From: Acaryochloris marina S15
Lineage (GTDB): Bacteria; Cyanobacteriota; Cyanobacteriia; Thermosynechococcales; Thermosynechococcaceae
Length of the DNA: 32,000 bases
Reading direction: 5' to 3'
NCBI RefSeq assembly: GCF_018336915.1
Contig: NZ_CP064923.1
Span: 4,800,001-4,832,000 of the forward strand
The notes beneath the pieces were generated by a model, which worked only from the letters and a program-made list of their open reading frames with translations, made no database searches and was not told the DNA's origin. Below, one piece after another: positions 1 through 5,088 of this stretch. A program made the translations under genes and the position numbers. How positions within the stretch are numbered: the first letter of the stretch is position 1; each line of letters starts with the position of its first letter.

Positions 1-176
1 GTCTGGTGTCCCCTTACTCACGTTTGAACACATTATTGCTTAGAATTTTGGAGTCCCAACCTATAGCTGACCCTGCTATGCTGGAATTATTGATCCAAAC
101 AGTAAGTCAAGCTCAAGCCTCAACTGATGCGTCTTGGGCCAGTGTTCAAGAGGTCAAACGAGTTTGGAGGCTTTGA
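1..176 (+). CDS. 3' end of an unidentified CDS entering from the left edge (partial)
   Basis: Frame 3 is open from the window edge to TGA at 174-176 (...LELLIQTVSQAQASTDASWASVQEVKRVWRL*). The stop shares its A with the ATG of the next ORF (TGATG). No family recognised. Confidence 0.3.
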   Translation, partial: LVSPYSRLNTLLLRILESQPIADPAMLELLIQTVSQAQASTDASWASVQEVKRVWRL

Positions 177-352
177 TGGCAGATAACAAAACAGCGATTC
201 CAAGCATTGAAGAAAGGCAACAGGCTCTTGAAATGCTAAGAGTGAGCAACCAACAGTTGGAACTCACCGCCATAGCATTAGACAAACTGATAACCACAGT
301 AGAGACAGGTCTAAGCCGACAATATCACCAGCGCGTGGAGAAAAGCCTCTAG
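176..352 (+). CDS. small hypothetical protein (58 aa from ATG 176; predicted helical)
   Basis: The ORF track gives 134..352 from a TTG. The ATG at 176 (MADNKTAIPSIEERQQALEMLRVSNQQLELTAIALDKLITTVETGL...) overlaps the upstream stop in TGATG, which suggests translational coupling. No family recognised. Confidence 0.35.
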   Translation: MADNKTAIPSIEERQQALEMLRVSNQQLELTAIALDKLITTVETGLSRQYHQRVEKSL

Positions 353-467
353 CAGCTCTACTTCCTAACAAGTTTGTCTCAGGGGCGCAGGTGGAATTTG
401 AAAAATCTCCATAGAGGGTGCGCATTGTTAATGCCGTACACTCCGTATAAGCGAGACACACTAAGGT

Positions 468-1007
468 CTAATAGTATTTTTCAGGGAAACCATAAAGCAG
501 TTCACTCGGATAGGCTGTATCAACTAGAAATTCAGAAACTTCGACATCAAATAATTGGCTGATCGAATACTTATCGAGGTATTCCTTGATTTGACTTGGA
601 TTTGAAAGATCGTAGTCATTGATGTATTGATCAACAATTTCACTGCGCAAAGAATGCAGCCATCTCTGAGGAAAATCACTGTCTAAGTCTGAATCAAAAA
701 AAGGAATTAATAAGAAGATAGGATCCAGCTTTTCTGAAGATTTACTCTGCAATATTGGCAGAGGTTGCAGAATACATATTCCTCTATTGATACGAGCATC
801 CGACCAATGTTCGAATTTCGGTAGTGGCGGGAAAAATCTACTAATCCCTGTGTCGCAGGCGGCTCGCCATTCAGCCATACCAGATGTATAGACTAACGTT
901 TTTTGATTGACTACATTTGTTAATGCCAGCTCTCTAAGTTGAGCGAGAGAGATAGGGCCTACAACTTCTTTGCCAACCATATAATGCCAAGCATCATTGT
1001 CGCTCAT
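468..1007 (-). CDS. GYF_2 (DUF4339-type) domain protein with an unrecognised C-terminal half
   Basis: The N-terminus WHYMVGKEVVGPISLAQLRELALTNVVNQKTLVYTSGMAEWRAA fits the bacterial GYF_2 pattern (W-y-y..G...GP.s..eL..l...g.i...tlVw..GM.eW..a). The rest is unrecognised. The locus is AT-richer than the surroundings. Confidence 0.6.
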   Translation of the reverse strand: MSDNDAWHYMVGKEVVGPISLAQLRELALTNVVNQKTLVYTSGMAEWRAACDTGISRFFPPLPKFEHWSDARINRGICILQPLPILQSKSSEKLDPIFLLIPFFDSDLDSDFPQRWLHSLRSEIVDQYINDYDLSNPSQIKEYLDKYSISQLFDVEVSEFLVDTAYPSELLYGFPEKYY

Positions 1008-1199
1008 ATCAGCATTTAATTGATTTTGGTAACAGCTTCACGAAGTGCCATCAAAGGTACGAATGGCTATCAGAAAAGTTCAATAAATCGCTCAAGTCTA
1101 AGCTTTCCTTGCACAGGATGAATTAGATAACGCAACAACAAAGAGTGACTTATAAAACTATAGGTGATCTCCCATCTACCCCAAACACATAGAAAATAT

Positions 1200-1715
1200 T
1201 TAGAACGTCACATACAGCCCACTCTGTCGCGCAAGGCAACTTCTGAGGAATGAAAGGTACTCTATCGTCAAGGAATTATCCGACTTAGATAGAAGTTCAA
1301 AGGACTGGCTTACCTCATCTGGTGATTGAAAATACGATCCCATTTTCCCTGGATCAAACGGATTGAAAGAAGGTCCAACGGTTTGACCCAACAGAGCGGC
1401 TTGGGATGAGTGAGTTAAACAATCGCCACAATCAAGCCATGCAGAACCGATACCAAAATCTTTGATTGGATCATAGAAGCGGGTAATCGCAAAATCTCCA
1501 AGTGTGTGAACATCATGAACATTTTCTACTTGTGTTCGCCAATCTAAATTGAGAGGTTCCCCTTCATATGGATCAACAAGGAATCGCACATTTTCTTCTA
1601 TGTATGAGTGCAGTGGAACTACATCATTTGATGCAAGAGCATTATGTAAAATCGTGAGAAAGTCAGTCTTAAAAAACTGCCAATCAAATTCGAAAGCTTT
1701 ATGCTCCATCGACAT
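1200..1715 (-). CDS. hypothetical protein, 171 aa, no recognised domain
   Basis: Clean 171-aa ORF with protein-like composition (MSMEHKAFEFDWQFFKTDFL...GLYVTF). It starts 16 nt after the GTTAACC core of the downstream attC-like element. AT-rich locus. Confidence 0.5.
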   Translation of the reverse strand: MSMEHKAFEFDWQFFKTDFLTILHNALASNDVVPLHSYIEENVRFLVDPYEGEPLNLDWRTQVENVHDVHTLGDFAITRFYDPIKDFGIGSAWLDCGDCLTHSSQAALLGQTVGPSFNPFDPGKMGSYFQSPDEVSQSFELLSKSDNSLTIEYLSFLRSCLARQSGLYVTF

Positions 1716-1731
1716 AAATCAAAGTTGGATC

Positions 1732-1821
1732 GGTTAACGCCCAAAATCACCGGGCCGCTGCTAGCGACGCTCCATTTAAATCTGACTGAATCGGCGGCTC
1801 CGGTGCATGTATTTGTTAGGC
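1732..1821 (-). mobile_element. attC-like imperfect palindrome 2 (3' of the tandem-TIR gene)
   Basis: Minus-strand read: GCCTAAC (7/7 to RYYYAAC, contains the TAA stop) - aaatacatg - CACCGGaGCCGC - 35-nt loop - GCGGCCCGGTG - attttgggc - GTTAACC (6/7 to GTTRRRY). The stem runs 1748-1758 against 1794-1805, 11 bp, with one bulged base (T1799 on the + strand). Homologous along its length to 2694-2794. Confidence 0.5.
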
Positions 1822-2667
1822 ATTTTTTACGCCGAGTGCAAAATCGAGTGCGCGCTGAAAACGGGATAAAGGGATTCCGTGCTCCGTTCGTTCTAAGTCA
1901 GACGAGTGATAGTTCAGCCAATGATATTTCTTCAACGCCTCTGGTGGTTCACAGTCTGTGTCCAACAAAACGGGAATAATGTAGATTTCGCCCTCTGGCA
2001 CCTCCTCTGCGACCTCAACGCTCTTGCGCAGTTCTTTTTGAAAGTAGCCGCGCTTAGCTATTGCATTGGAAGAGAGCAGCGGCATAAACACCTGAGATCG
2101 ACGAATAGCCCTTCGGATTTCAAGCCCCCAATCCTGGCCGGGAATTAATGACTCTTCGTCGAACCAGAGTCGGTATCCCATTATCTTGAGTTTTTCGTAA
2201 ATCGTACGGGCAATTTCCACGTCGACGCGCGAATAAGATAGGAAAATCTGGTCGGAGCTGCGCTGGTGCCGTTCTCCCAATTCATCCACGTGTCTAAGAA
2301 TCTCGTTGATCGCAGCATCTTCATCGCCATCAAAGTAAACAAGTCGTTCTCCAGCAAGATATTTCGGCGCACGGCTAACAAGCTTTTGTGTGGTGAGCAA
2401 GACGGTCCGATGGTCGTTGCCGTGACCAGTGAAAAAGGCAATCTCACTTGCCACATTTGCGTACCATGTGGTGTGCAAACCAACAGCAACCAATGTGTCG
2501 GCATTCCGAATTGCTTTCGCGACGTCATCATCAACGAACGAAAACTCGGAAAAATCGGCCCGGATTTGTTCACCAGCGATCGCTTGGTGTCCTGATTTTG
2601 TGATGCGCTGCGCAATCTTGAGAGCGAATTCCTTGTCGTAGTTGGTATGAGCGACGAAAACAATCAT
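1816..2667 (-). CDS. tandem TIR-domain protein (N-terminal degenerate TIR-like domain plus C-terminal canonical bacterial TIR_2 domain)
   Basis: The C-terminal half IFLSYSRVDVEIARTIYEKLKIMGYRLWFDEESLIPGQDWGLEIRRAIRRSQVFMPLLSSNAIAKRGYFQKELRKS...IIPVLLD is a textbook TIR_2 pattern. The N-terminal half MIVFVAHTNYDKEFALKIAQRI...AIRNADTLVAVGLHTTWYANVASEIAFF repeats the same layout (beta-A strand, then the S/E helix). Confidence 0.8.
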   Translation of the reverse strand: MIVFVAHTNYDKEFALKIAQRITKSGHQAIAGEQIRADFSEFSFVDDDVAKAIRNADTLVAVGLHTTWYANVASEIAFFTGHGNDHRTVLLTTQKLVSRAPKYLAGERLVYFDGDEDAAINEILRHVDELGERHQRSSDQIFLSYSRVDVEIARTIYEKLKIMGYRLWFDEESLIPGQDWGLEIRRAIRRSQVFMPLLSSNAIAKRGYFQKELRKSVEVAEEVPEGEIYIIPVLLDTDCEPPEALKKYHWLNYHSSDLERTEHGIPLSRFQRALDFALGVKNA

Positions 2668-2693
2668 CTGAATGCCTAAATATACTTATGAAT

Positions 2694-2794
2694 ACCTAAC
2701 GTCTGGCATAATCGGGCCGCCGCGATTGATGCTCTATTTGAAAACGTGTTGAAAACGTGCTGACGGGGGCTCCGCGTTCATGCCTTTGTTATGC
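2694..2794 (-). mobile_element. attC-like imperfect palindrome 1 (3' of the TIR-like/CHAT-like gene)
   Basis: Minus-strand read: GCATAAC (6/7 RYYYAAC, contains the TAA stop) - aaa - GGCATgAA - cg - CGGaGCC ... loop ... GGCCCG - a - TTATGCC - agac - GTTAGGT (7/7 GTTRRRY), ending 26 nt before the ATG of the next gene. Stems on the + strand are 2705-2711/2777-2784 (bulged C2779) and 2713-2718/2768-2774 (bulged T2771). Homologous to 1732-1821. Confidence 0.5.
2738..2759. repeat. perfect tandem duplication of an 11-mer (TTGAAAACGTG x2) in the loop of attC-like element 1
   Basis: 2738-2748 and 2749-2759 are identical. This block is the main length difference between the two attC-like elements. Confidence 0.9.
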
Positions 2795-3814
2795 GATATT
2801 GGAAAACATCTTGGGAGGCTCCTCATCGCTGTGGTCAATATTGAACTTGGCGACTCCGTTATCATATGCAGTCCGGTAGTCGCTGCTGTTACCAATTGCG
2901 GTGTAGAATCCACTGGTAAACACTGTGGCCCCTGCATCGGAGATGATTCCGGTCGCACCGATGGTGAATGGGACATCAGCGGACACACGCTCGGCCAATC
3001 CATCAGTTTCGCAGCACGAGAACAGGACGCATTCGAGCTTCTTTGCGAGCGGGCGAAGGAGCGCATGGAATAAATCGTAGCTCACAGCTTTAGTGGTACC
3101 ATCCGATGATTCAAACAGAAATCCGCCTGTCTCCGTGCCAGAGCACGACAAATGAAGGATTTCGGGATGGTGCAAAAGCAGTAATCGATCCAAGTCGTGG
3201 GCTTGCACGGCCCACTCTTGTTCAAGAACTATTTCACCAGATCGACGTGCAGATTCGAGTGCCCGCGTAATTCGCCGCACCTCACAATCCATTCGAAGCC
3301 GATTCTCGTCAATCGGATTGGCACAGAGCACCAGTACCTTTCGTGCGGCTTTCCGCTGACCCCAATTTTGTAATTCTTGCCGAATCGTGAAGCATGCGGG
3401 ACCGACCGCGGTCAATAAGTTTCCTTGGTCCGCACTGCGGTAAGCGGCAAAGGTCACACCATGGAGGTCACTGATAACGTCAGGCTTGGCACTTGCGTCG
3501 AAAACAGCAAATGTCCGTGAACGCCCGACGTGACCATAGAAAAGTCCAAGTTCAAAAAGAACGTTTCCGCGCGTAGTTCCGGTCTCCGCTCCGCGGCTAA
3601 CAAGAGTATCGTCGCTGCGAAGAACGAAAATGCCGTAGTCGAATTGCTTGACGGTGTCCACCAACGTCTCAAGATAGCCATGCGATAGACTGAATACACC
3701 TTCGTTCCAAAGGACGACCTCGGCGGCGTCAGCGAGTTGGTGTTGGATCGCTCTGGCAACATCAAGCCCTTCAGACGACGACCCAATGAAGACTCGTGGT
3801 TTTTGTATTGTCAT
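2789..3814 (-). CDS. fusion protein: N-terminal Cap12/PycTIR-type TIR-like domain (PF10137-like) plus C-terminal short CHAT/caspase-like domain
   Basis: From ATG 3814: MTIQKPRVFIGSSSEGLDVARAIQHQL...DYGIFVLRSDD...TRGNVLFELGLFYGHVGRSRTF...ISDLHGVT matches the 'VFIGSSSE ... RDNVLFELGLF.G.LGR.R.F ... PSDL.G' signature of the TIR-like nucleotide-binding family. The C-terminal KVLVLCANPIDENRLRMDCEVRRI...EWAVQAHDLDRLLLLHHPEILHLSCSG...LECVLFSCCET...FTIGATGIISDAGATVFTSGFYTAIG matches the 'ILFLAANP.D...L.LD.E.R.I...WA.R..DL...L....P.IVHFSGHG...CVVLN.CYS...VIGM...I.D.AA..F..GFY.ALG' CHAT-type pattern. I reject the 28-aa N-terminal extension in the ORF track (start 3898) because it lies outside the domain and reads as low-quality sequence. 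Confidence 0.75.
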   Translation of the reverse strand: MTIQKPRVFIGSSSEGLDVARAIQHQLADAAEVVLWNEGVFSLSHGYLETLVDTVKQFDYGIFVLRSDDTLVSRGAETGTTRGNVLFELGLFYGHVGRSRTFAVFDASAKPDVISDLHGVTFAAYRSADQGNLLTAVGPACFTIRQELQNWGQRKAARKVLVLCANPIDENRLRMDCEVRRITRALESARRSGEIVLEQEWAVQAHDLDRLLLLHHPEILHLSCSGTETGGFLFESSDGTTKAVSYDLFHALLRPLAKKLECVLFSCCETDGLAERVSADVPFTIGATGIISDAGATVFTSGFYTAIGNSSDYRTAYDNGVAKFNIDHSDEEPPKMFSNIA

Positions 3815-4464
3815 TTGTTCGATCGCATAACTATAATTAGCAGGCAAATTGCCTCTTAACACGAAAAAAAGAAGGGCTAGTTGTCGTCTCAAAGCCAAGC
3901 TATCTCTACATTAGCATCTCTGATACAAGGCCAAGCTTTACGGAAAATCGCCGATATGTAAAATCGATTCTGAATGCCTATATATAAGGCAGGAAAAGCG
4001 TTGCCAGTATATTGGCTATGCACCTATGAAGAATGTTAATAGGCAAAATAACCGTATAAGTTCCAATATCGGCTATTAACAGGCACTCTATGGCACCTAC
4101 CAACCCTCATAAACTTTTCGGCTAAGTTTGTGAGGTAATACGCGAGCCAAACATGACACTTACAGCACTGAGAAAAATTACATGCAGTGGATACGGTGCT
4201 TGATTCCCTTCCACAACGAAAGTCATCTCAAAGAAATGGCCGAACATGAAGTCGAAGCCTTTCTTACCCTCGATACAATAGTAAAAGTGCATAGGCATCC
4301 CATATTTAACGCTTAAGTGCTCAGCCCGCACTCAACCAATTGTCCCTCTTTAATCCATCGCTGACCATCACCATATGGTCATGACAGGCATTTCATTTAG
4401 AACTGCTCCAATCTCGAATAAAGGGTGCCTATATTGCTACCGCTCGTTTAGGAAGGTTGAAAAA

Positions 4465-5088
4465 ATGGATAGTAGTCATCCACTAGCCACTAGCCAGCGG
4501 CTCTCCTTTTTTACCTTAGCTGTACAAGCCTATCGCCAAGGCAAGCTAGGAGATGTTGCCGCTTATAAATCTGCAATATTAGGCACTAAAACTTATCCAG
4601 AAATTGCAGAAAAGCTCTCTAGATTGGCAACCTGCTTTCCTCACATTGATTTAGCAGCCTTAAGAAGGCTACCAGAAGGAACCTTTGGACAGATCTATGC
4701 CCAGCATATGGATGAATTCCATCTAACGCCATTGGAGATTAGCCCAGACGTCATCGCTCAATTGTCAGATCAATCTTTGGGACTGCGCTATACCCTCCTC
4801 CATGATGTGTTTCATGTGCTGTTAGGGTATGACACCAGCTTGGTCGGAGAAATGGGGGTGTGGGCCTTTGTCGATGCCCAGCAGTATAGTCCTAGCTATC
4901 AGACAGCAGCCTGGTTAGCCCATTACTTATATCCCTTCGTCATTCCGCACCGATACCGCCAACTACGTGCTATCGAGCAGCAAAGTCGTCAACTTGGACA
5001 GCAAGCAGCCTGCATCATCGCTCAACCCCTCGAAGACTATTGGTCAGAACCCCTCTCTATGGTTCGATCGCGCCTAGGGTTGGCATAA
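4465..5088 (+). CDS. Coq4-family protein
   Basis: LRYTLLHDVFHVLLGYDTSLVGEMGVWAF fits the Coq4 family motif (HD..H.L.G....-.GE). The ATG at 4465 is preceded by GGAAGG about 9 nt upstream. The ORF-track start at 4375 adds a Cys-rich, unlikely leader. Confidence 0.6.
   Translation: MDSSHPLATSQRLSFFTLAVQAYRQGKLGDVAAYKSAILGTKTYPEIAEKLSRLATCFPHIDLAALRRLPEGTFGQIYAQHMDEFHLTPLEISPDVIAQLSDQSLGLRYTLLHDVFHVLLGYDTSLVGEMGVWAFVDAQQYSPSYQTAAWLAHYLYPFVIPHRYRQLRAIEQQSRQLGQQAACIIAQPLEDYWSEPLSMVRSRLGLA

Follow-up and report, generated by a model that had tools for sequence, protein, structure and literature searches.

The stretch of DNA analyzed here (the window) comprises 32,000 nucleotides of Acaryochloris marina S15 (contig NZ_CP064923.1, positions 4,800,001 to 4,832,000). 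The gene under study lies on its minus strand and encodes a fusion protein of 341 amino acids (aa), in which an N-terminal TIR domain is followed by a C-terminal module of the CHAT type that is best read as a pseudo-protease (pseudoCHAT). The window protein was 100% identical to A. marina WP_212663043.1/QUY41850.1 (database match P0152), which is annotated only as a 'nucleotide-binding protein' and is the lone member of its 90% cluster. The ATG at 3814 was taken as the start codon; it matches the identical NCBI record and the N-termini of homologs. A TTG at 3898 was considered as a start and ruled out, as the NCBI protein and the homologs begin at ATG 3814. A codon check reproduced all codon positions given in the original prediction, an earlier reading made from the sequence alone. 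The features of the fusion gene, with residues counted from ATG 3814, are:

2789..3814, minus strand: TIR-pseudoCHAT fusion gene; complete open reading frame (ORF), 341 aa plus stop
3359..3802, minus strand: CAP12/PycTIR-type TIR domain, predicted NAD+ hydrolase effector (residues 5-152)
2801..3346, minus strand: short CHAT module with a broken dyad (pseudoCHAT; residues 157-338)
3551..3553, minus strand: E88, TIR catalytic Glu in VLFELG (the FELG motif begins at residue 87)
3467..3469, minus strand: D116, equivalent of SfSTING D110; completes the NADase site from the neighboring TIR protomer
3152..3154, minus strand: H221, codon CAT; family-wide conserved His of the IVHF strand
3143..3145, minus strand: C224, clade-specific Cys in place of the near-invariant Gly preceding the catalytic His
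3140..3142, minus strand: S225, codon TCT; position of the catalytic His (H375 of SAVED-CHAT)
3014..3016, minus strand: C267, position from the codon check
3011..3013, minus strand: C268, position of the catalytic Cys (C422 of SAVED-CHAT); kept in the window protein

Domains of the fusion protein

A direct Pfam scan of the C-terminal 191 aa gave no CHAT match even at E<=10; membership in the CHAT family was therefore established through relatives, Protein Data Bank (PDB) structures, and fold. A phmmer search against the PDB matched 8TL0 (SAVED-CHAT) at E 8.6e-7, placing HLSCSG on HFIGHG and FSCCET on LNACCT. As residue numbers in the 8TL0 publication run 20 above the chain index, this alignment equates S225 with H375 and C268 with C422. 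These two residues are the dyad mutated in dSAVED-CHAT and lie 3.8 Å apart in the structure (bioRxiv 10.1101/2023.06.23.546230). A profile built from 11 fusion proteins matched 8TL0 at E 8.2e-19 with the register unchanged.

An exhaustive HMMER search of 1.84 billion representatives returned 11,638 short-CHAT proteins at E<=1e-3. A word-indexed search with the C-terminal domain alone had returned one protein, and exhaustive and alignment-based searches were then used; word-indexed searches can overlook distant members. The single-module proteins among the best 150 of the 11,638 family matches supplied 113 canonical relatives, 112 of which matched PF12770. A hidden Markov model (HMM) of these 113 sequences matched the window domain at E 1.5e-50, with IVHFSGHG on ILHLSCSG and CVVLNACYS on CVLFSCCET. 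PF12770 itself reached two of the fusion homologs, P0155 (27 bits) and P0160 (25.5 bits), against a cutoff of 24.

The AlphaFold2 model had a predicted local distance difference test (pLDDT) score of ~90 across residues 157-338 and placed S225 and C268 directly after the strands at 219-223 and 262-265. When this model was compared with the PDB using Foldseek, 8TL0 was the first match (E 7e-14), followed by gingipain R, caspases-11/-4/-1/-9/-7/-3, and MALT1 at E 1e-5 to 1e-4. Pfam gave no Peptidase_C14 match in the window protein, where the dyad positions read S/C. The earlier by-eye assignment of the domain to the short cyanobacterial CHAT-type module agrees with 8TL0, the canonical HMM, and Foldseek alike. 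Its register was likewise correct: pairwise, profile, and canonical-HMM alignments as well as the fold comparison put S225 on the catalytic His, and in none of the three sequence alignments did a His move onto that site. The C-terminal domain is a genuine CHAT/caspase-fold module, as the structure prediction and its matches to 8TL0, gingipain, and caspases bear out.

At the N-terminus, residues 5-152 matched Pfam PF10137 (CAP12/Pycsar effector TIR) with 92.6 bits against a cutoff of 24.7, and PADLOC TIR effector models matched the domain at E 4.6e-43. With the NCBIfam Cap12 models, the match was confined to the TIR part and reached 121 and 96 bits (cutoff 450). The PDB matches of the TIR domain were 9LMQ Cap12 (E 3.5e-22), 8JSJ PycTIR (4e-18), and 7UN8 SfSTING (4e-17). 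The NAD-site residues of SfSTING are F6, S10, W33, F37, L47, R78, N80, E84 (catalytic), and D110, the last of which is contributed by the opposite TIR protomer (PMC9402430). Transferred to the window protein through the 7UN8 alignment, they correspond to F9, S13, W36, F41, L51, R82, N84, E88, and D116, respectively. The glutamate of FELG, described in the original prediction as intact, is E88 and aligns with the catalytic E84 of SfSTING.

Among the 11 full-length fusions S13, W36, F41, L51, R82, N84, E88, and D116 were invariant or nearly so, with E88 (11/11) and D116 invariant throughout; F9 could not be scored in the fusion alignment because some N-termini are truncated. The nearest 70 TIR relatives had invariant S13, W36, R82, N84, and E88 (70/70 for E88) and nearly invariant F9, F41, L51, and D116. 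Because the NAD-site residues are all conserved, the TIR half looks like a competent NADase that requires assembly.

TIR domains up to 73% identical to that of the window protein carried unrelated C-terminal domains, and C-terminal extensions of more than 80 aa were found in 70 of the 110 nearest TIR relatives. The close PF10137 TIRs in the set P0161-P0269 had varied C-terminal domains, nearly all without a Pfam match; the weak matches were to PAS and Cap15_CD_rec only. These domains form a candidate pool of sensor domains for TIR NADases.

Dyad loss and selection in the fusion clade

The fusion set contained 13 sequences: 11 full-length TIR-plus-CHAT proteins, found by alignment-based searches, and two fragments (P0270 and P0277). 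They formed two clades. The window's clade contained eight sequences, whose members were 48-79% identical to the window protein, and the sister clade contained five. The residues at the two dyad positions were:

Window's clade (n=8), position 225: S, Q, S, S, M, P, S, S
Window's clade (n=8), position 268: C in seven sequences, E in P0156
Sister clade (n=5), position 225 (His site): H in four sequences, R in one
Sister clade (n=5), position 268 (Cys site): G, G, D, G, G

A complete His-Cys dyad was present in 0 of the 13 fusion sequences. By comparison, the full dyad was found in 112 of 115 single-module proteins among the best 150 of the 11,638 family matches. The only true dyad-less exceptions among those 115 were TIR fusions, P0102 being an alignment-gap artifact. 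Across canonical domains the catalytic His was present in 166 of 187. The multiple alignment did not bear out a conserved Ser at position 225, which drifts among S, Q, M, and P within the window's clade. Retention of the Cys, as originally described, holds for the window protein and for seven of the eight members of its clade, and fails in P0156 (Glu) and in all five sister sequences (Gly or Asp). The key point is loss of constraint at position 225, not a special Ser. The earlier suggestion of a pseudo-protease fits these data, in that the CHAT fold is genuine, the dyad His is missing, and catalysis is apparently not maintained across the homologs; a pseudo-protease without a working Cys-His dyad is the best reading of the C-terminal domain.

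A neighbor-joining tree of 124 domains and the 8TL0 CHAT fragment placed the 11 fusion domains in one monophyletic group with a bootstrap value of 58, and each of the two fusion clades was recovered with a bootstrap value of 86. The simplest history would be that the fusion arose once and that the two lineages then each lost a different half of the dyad.

The residues surrounding the former active site were also altered. Seven canonical residues conserved at 82% or more were replaced in the fusions: F222, G224, N266, A267, Y269, S270, and Q273. The core and hallmark motifs were kept: N166-P167, D176, E178, R180, H221, C262, D293, F299, F303, and Y304. The change G224C was common to 13/13 fusion sequences; Gly occupied this position in 174 of 187 canonical domains and in 112 of the 113 single-module ones (99%). 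Besides C224, the sole clade-specific gain was F265 in place of Leu. Candidate roles for C224 are redox chemistry, metal binding, or a relocated nucleophile; a Zn or disulfide site formed by C224/C262/H215/H221 or by C224-C268 was also considered. H221, which had been put forward as a substitute general base, was present in 182/187 canonical domains also carrying H225. Because this residue is family-wide in canonical domains that have H225, where it is equally conserved, it does not compensate for the lost His and is probably structural.

The pseudoCHAT domain is under purifying selection. Between the clade-B genes at loci L002 and L005, the ratio of non-synonymous to synonymous substitution rates (dN/dS) was 0.093 for pseudoCHAT and 0.044 for TIR. 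For the window gene and its homolog at L006 (79% identity) dS was saturated, and dN was 0.07 in the TIR domain and 0.20 in pseudoCHAT. The C-terminal domain was 28-71% identical across the 11 fusion proteins, and long blocks, e.g., FTSGFYTAIGNSSDY, were invariant in most of the fusion clade. In one clade-B copy (L007 7643-8504, plus strand), TIR (136 aa) and pseudoCHAT (167 aa) lay on separate ORFs that overlap. This split could be a frameshift or an assembly error; many neighboring genes in the contig are also fragmented.

The TIR-pseudoCHAT fusions form a rare clade of at least 13 sequences from collections of billions of proteins. In a scan of the genome collection the only match was a Deinococcales CHAT-FGE-sulfatase protein whose dyad is intact, a metagenome scan with the clade profile returned 15 loci that were all canonical CHAT modules without TIR, and a scan of viral contigs gave no match. 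The Deinococcales protein (L001 9971-11473, plus strand, metagenome-assembled genome contig JAWKPU010000001.1) is 500 aa long, and its N-terminal short CHAT is intact (ILHFSRHG, CVVLNACYTE). The C-terminal region of this protein is FGE-sulfatase-like by eye, and Pfam FGE-sulfatase matched one canonical relative; the gene is inserted straight after succinate dehydrogenase genes. In two other proteins, P0164 and P0165, the domain that comes after a PF10137 TIR matches the CHAT HMM over its second half (E ~1e-6). The Cys is kept in these proteins (LVVLAMCDS) and a Phe stands at the His position, by eye only (IVHILGFIH); they may represent a third, more divergent TIR-plus-CHAT-like lineage.

Genomic context

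The fusion gene is the rightmost of four genes on one strand (468-3814), its companions encoding a TIR-like/TIR_2 protein, an unknown 171-aa protein, and a GYF_2 protein:

1816..2667, minus strand: TIR-like/TIR_2 gene, 283 aa; adjacent downstream across a 121-bp gap (context only)
468-1715, minus strand: two downstream same-strand genes, encoding an unknown 171-aa protein and a 179-aa GYF_2-domain protein

In the 283-aa protein, TIR_2 covered residues 141-256 (Pfam E 4.5e-31) with the glutamate of a QKEL motif kept, and the N-terminal domain was weakly TIR-like, with a SEIAFF motif and a PF10137 match at E 0.21 only. This protein also matched PDB TIR structures. Its TIR_2 part shared 36% identity with that of P0047, an HD-CE/TIR_2/CHAT fusion whose dyad is intact. 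The 171-aa protein had no match in Pfam, NCBIfam, PADLOC, or PDB. The G+C content of the 468-1715 region was 0.39-0.43 versus ~0.52 in the TIR-pseudoCHAT gene and housekeeping genes, and this lower G+C hints at a separately acquired segment. The TIR-pseudoCHAT gene itself was not distinctive in the GC profile, and a promoter and terminator scan of positions 1-4500 gave counts at chance level.

A Coq4-like protein and MalQ are also encoded nearby. Elsewhere, the window is an unremarkable piece of cyanobacterial chromosome, with genes for MalQ, a ThiO-like oxidase, a sigma-70 factor, glycogen phosphorylase, AccC, ClpB, and NdhD/F. No second CHAT or caspase gene was found within the 32-kb window, and no CD-NTase or pyrimidine cyclase gene was found beside the window gene or in the homolog loci.

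Homologs of the fusion gene tend to sit among defense or mobile genes. Several of them are on 1-3 kb contigs, where context is thin. The neighbors recorded at the homolog loci were:

L002 and L003: group II intron reverse transcriptase
L005: Mrr_cat, an unknown gene, and a TIR/TIR_2 gene
L006 (79% identity): small unknown ORFs and a TMEM175 gene
L007 (apparently frameshifted copy): DUF4062, NB-ARC, TPR, and a phage-type integrase
L008: HEPN_AbiU2

A tblastn search of L001-L006 with the three downstream window proteins found only a generic TIR_2 match (32% over 96 aa, L005), and the gene lists of L007 and L008 held no shared partner gene. The fusion gene appears self-contained, with no conserved partner.

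Proposed role of the pseudoCHAT domain

We propose that the gene encodes a stand-alone, one-polypeptide immune effector. The N-terminal TIR would act as a NAD+ hydrolase that works only when TIR domains pack together, because one active-site Asp comes from the neighboring protomer. The C-terminal domain would descend from the large short-CHAT cysteine protease family, with the working dyad gone, and would occupy the slot where characterized relatives hold a ligand-sensing, oligomerizing domain (STING, SAVED, or cyclic nucleotide monophosphate [cNMP]-binding). From that slot it would control TIR assembly through caspase-fold self-association and/or by binding a peptide or protein in the vestigial substrate groove and leaving it uncleaved. 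In response to a trigger, which is probably of phage origin, NAD+ depletion and abortive infection would follow. In the characterized TIR relatives the non-TIR domain senses a ligand and drives the oligomerization that builds the composite NADase site (PMC9402430), and in 8TL0 the CHAT domains make head-to-tail and cross-fiber contacts within filaments. It is because of the variable C-termini of related TIRs, the precedent of sensor domains, and this CHAT self-association that pseudoCHAT is proposed as the control module. The whole reading, in which pseudoCHAT controls the assembly of a TIR NADase that acts against phage as a single protein, is considered somewhat probable. A joint claim that pseudoCHAT is a non-cutting 'bait' sensor of a phage protein or peptide, nucleating TIR NADase assembly in single-gene abortive infection, and that the two sister lineages reached catalytic death separately, by His loss versus Cys loss, is put forward only tentatively.

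The closest solved relative of the C-terminal module is the SAVED-CHAT protein of the Haliangium ochraceum type III-B CRISPR system (8TL0), with the same strand order and with dyad positions at strand ends. SAVED-CHAT differs in having a working H375/C422 dyad and in using CHAT as the effector, driven by a SAVED sensor; in the window protein the His is replaced by Ser, the partner is a TIR predicted to be an NADase, and the CHAT domain is most likely regulatory. On the TIR side, CBASS Cap12 (TIR-STING, TIR-SAVED) and PycTIR belong to the same PF10137 family and share the catalytic Glu, the NAD pocket, and the trans Asp, and they too join a TIR effector to a second, controlling domain. The window protein differs from them in lacking a STING, SAVED, or cNMP-binding domain, with an apparently dead protease domain in that slot, and in having no CD-NTase or cyclase gene nearby.

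The window domain belongs with the short CHAT modules (PF12770; consensus IVHFSGHG...CVVLNACYSE) of conflict systems in cyanobacteria and other multicellular bacteria. Partners in this family include REC, TPR, TRADD-N, NACHT, AAA_35, EAD, FGE-sulfatase, and TIR_2. Canonical single-module members keep the dyad (the 112 of 115 given above), whereas the TIR-fused clade never does and has remodeled active-site surroundings. Dead caspase-fold domains with proposed non-catalytic roles are retained elsewhere in bacteria. Of the caspase domains that take the effector position in vWA components, approximately 70% are reported to be inactive, and decoy or dominant-negative roles have been suggested for them (Kaur et al., 2020; PMC7159879). 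In the pseudo-orthocaspases of cyanobacteria the dyad positions are occupied by Tyr/Ser (Klemencic et al., 2019; PMC6426788). Unlike the window module, these are vWA-fused caspase domains (VMAP) or C14 p20 domains with Tyr/Ser, and they have other partners; a fusion to a CAP12-type TIR NADase is described neither in Kaur et al. (2020) nor in Klemencic et al. (2019), as read here.

Type IV Thoeris also brings TIR and caspase-fold proteins together in bacterial immunity. It uses two genes, with the TIR as signal generator and the caspase as an active Arg-specific protease, whereas the window protein is a fusion of the two, with a TIR of the effector type (PF10137) and a caspase-fold domain that appears dead. 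The authors of type IV Thoeris propose that the signal is sensed by the C-terminal domain of the caspase effector. A search of the full-text literature for a TIR-CHAT or TIR-caspase fusion found none described, and only the type IV Thoeris papers surfaced. Inactive bacterial caspase-fold domains, and cooperation of TIR and caspase-like proteins as separate genes, are already known; what is new here is an effector-type TIR joined to a CHAT module that is, as judged from its residues, dead in every known member.

Several other explanations were weighed. The pseudoCHAT domain could have a trans partner, an active short-CHAT or caspase-like protease encoded elsewhere in the genome, much as the pseudo-caspase cFLIP pairs with caspase-8. 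It would then either regulate that protease or serve as a docking or decoy substrate, with the TIR NADase being released or assembled once this substrate is cleaved or recruited, and protease signaling would be coupled to NAD+ depletion. The short-CHAT family is very large (11,638 representatives) and contains proteins with two copies of the module (n=26, e.g., P0002-P0035). As 18 of these 26 hold one intact and one degenerate module (five have both intact and three have neither), an active/inactive pair is suggested to be an obligate working unit like a caspase pseudo-dimer. The dominant-negative or decoy roles proposed for inactive caspase domains by Kaur et al. (2020; PMC7159879) point the same way. 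Heterodimerization is hypothetical, and no other CHAT or caspase gene lies in the 32-kb window or beside the homologs in six loci; trans-pairing is considered unlikely. An improbable alternative is a Thoeris-like pair with the adjacent gene at 1816-2667, in which TIR_2 would make a nucleotide signal, pseudoCHAT would sense it, and the CAP12-type TIR would deplete NAD+. The two genes share a strand across a 121-bp gap, the neighboring TIR_2 keeps its QKEL glutamate, the clade-B homolog at L005 has a TIR_2 gene three genes downstream, and TIR_2 is fused to short-CHAT modules in P0047, P0113, P0117, and P0013. The TIR_2 genes of the window and L005 are, however, non-orthologous (32% identity over 96 aa), and no TIR_2 gene is found beside L006, the 79% identical homolog, nor in L002, L003, L007, or L008. 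In type IV Thoeris, moreover, it is a separate C-terminal domain of the caspase effector that is the proposed sensor. We know of no CHAT domain for which nucleotide binding has been described. This pairing was ranked low because no conserved operon partner was found in the homolog loci.

The C-terminal domain could alternatively still be a protease with a non-canonical catalytic set, combining C268 with a base such as H221 or using C224 as a relocated nucleophile. C268 is kept in 7/8 of the window's clade, C224 is present in 13/13 fusions where ~99% of canonical single-module domains have Gly, and H221 is near in sequence. Yet position 225 drifts (S, Q, M, P), C268 is absent from the sister clade, and H221 is just as conserved in canonical enzymes with H225. 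Around the nucleophile, N266, Y269, S270, and Q273 are all replaced. The H221/C224 pair is the only one common to all members and nothing points to a dyad, making a surviving protease decidedly improbable. The opposite extreme, that the domain is a decaying relic without a function of its own, would account for the loss of catalytic and flanking residues in several different ways. It is very hard to reconcile with a dN/dS of ~0.09 for pseudoCHAT, with the conserved sequence blocks and 28-71% identity across 11 proteins, with a confidently predicted fold (pLDDT ~90), or with the lack of truncated copies other than the apparently frameshifted one in an error-prone assembly (L007), and is judged extremely improbable.

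Other observations weigh against pseudoCHAT as the control module of a TIR NADase. The activity, oligomeric state, and ligand of the fusion protein are predictions. In the AlphaFold2 model the TIR half is poorly predicted, with pLDDT <50 for residues 66-136, and is unreliable because the alignment behind the model held 11 sequences only. With C268 in 7/8 of the window's clade and an invariant C224 (13/13), some thiol-dependent chemistry is conceivable. No partner gene or trigger was identifiable, and the closest homolog, L006, lies in a context without a visible defense gene. The fusion group totals 13 sequences, several of them fragmentary, and its monophyly is only moderately supported (58%). 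An intact-dyad PF10137 fusion might also exist beyond the inspected best 150 of the 11,638 family members.

TIR NADase effectors are switched on by nucleotide-sensing domains (STING, SAVED, cNMP-binding), and CHAT domains in bacterial immunity are known as active proteases. Even if pseudoCHAT does not control TIR assembly, the clade would still be a clean example of active-site decay following domain fusion. If it does, a protein- or peptide-binding pseudo-enzyme would join the list of TIR triggers, and the bait reading, if true, would add a new class of trigger domain for TIR effectors. The fusion would then be a bacterial counterpart of the pseudo-caspases of eukaryotes (e.g., cFLIP) and a compact two-domain model for the re-use of a pseudo-protease.

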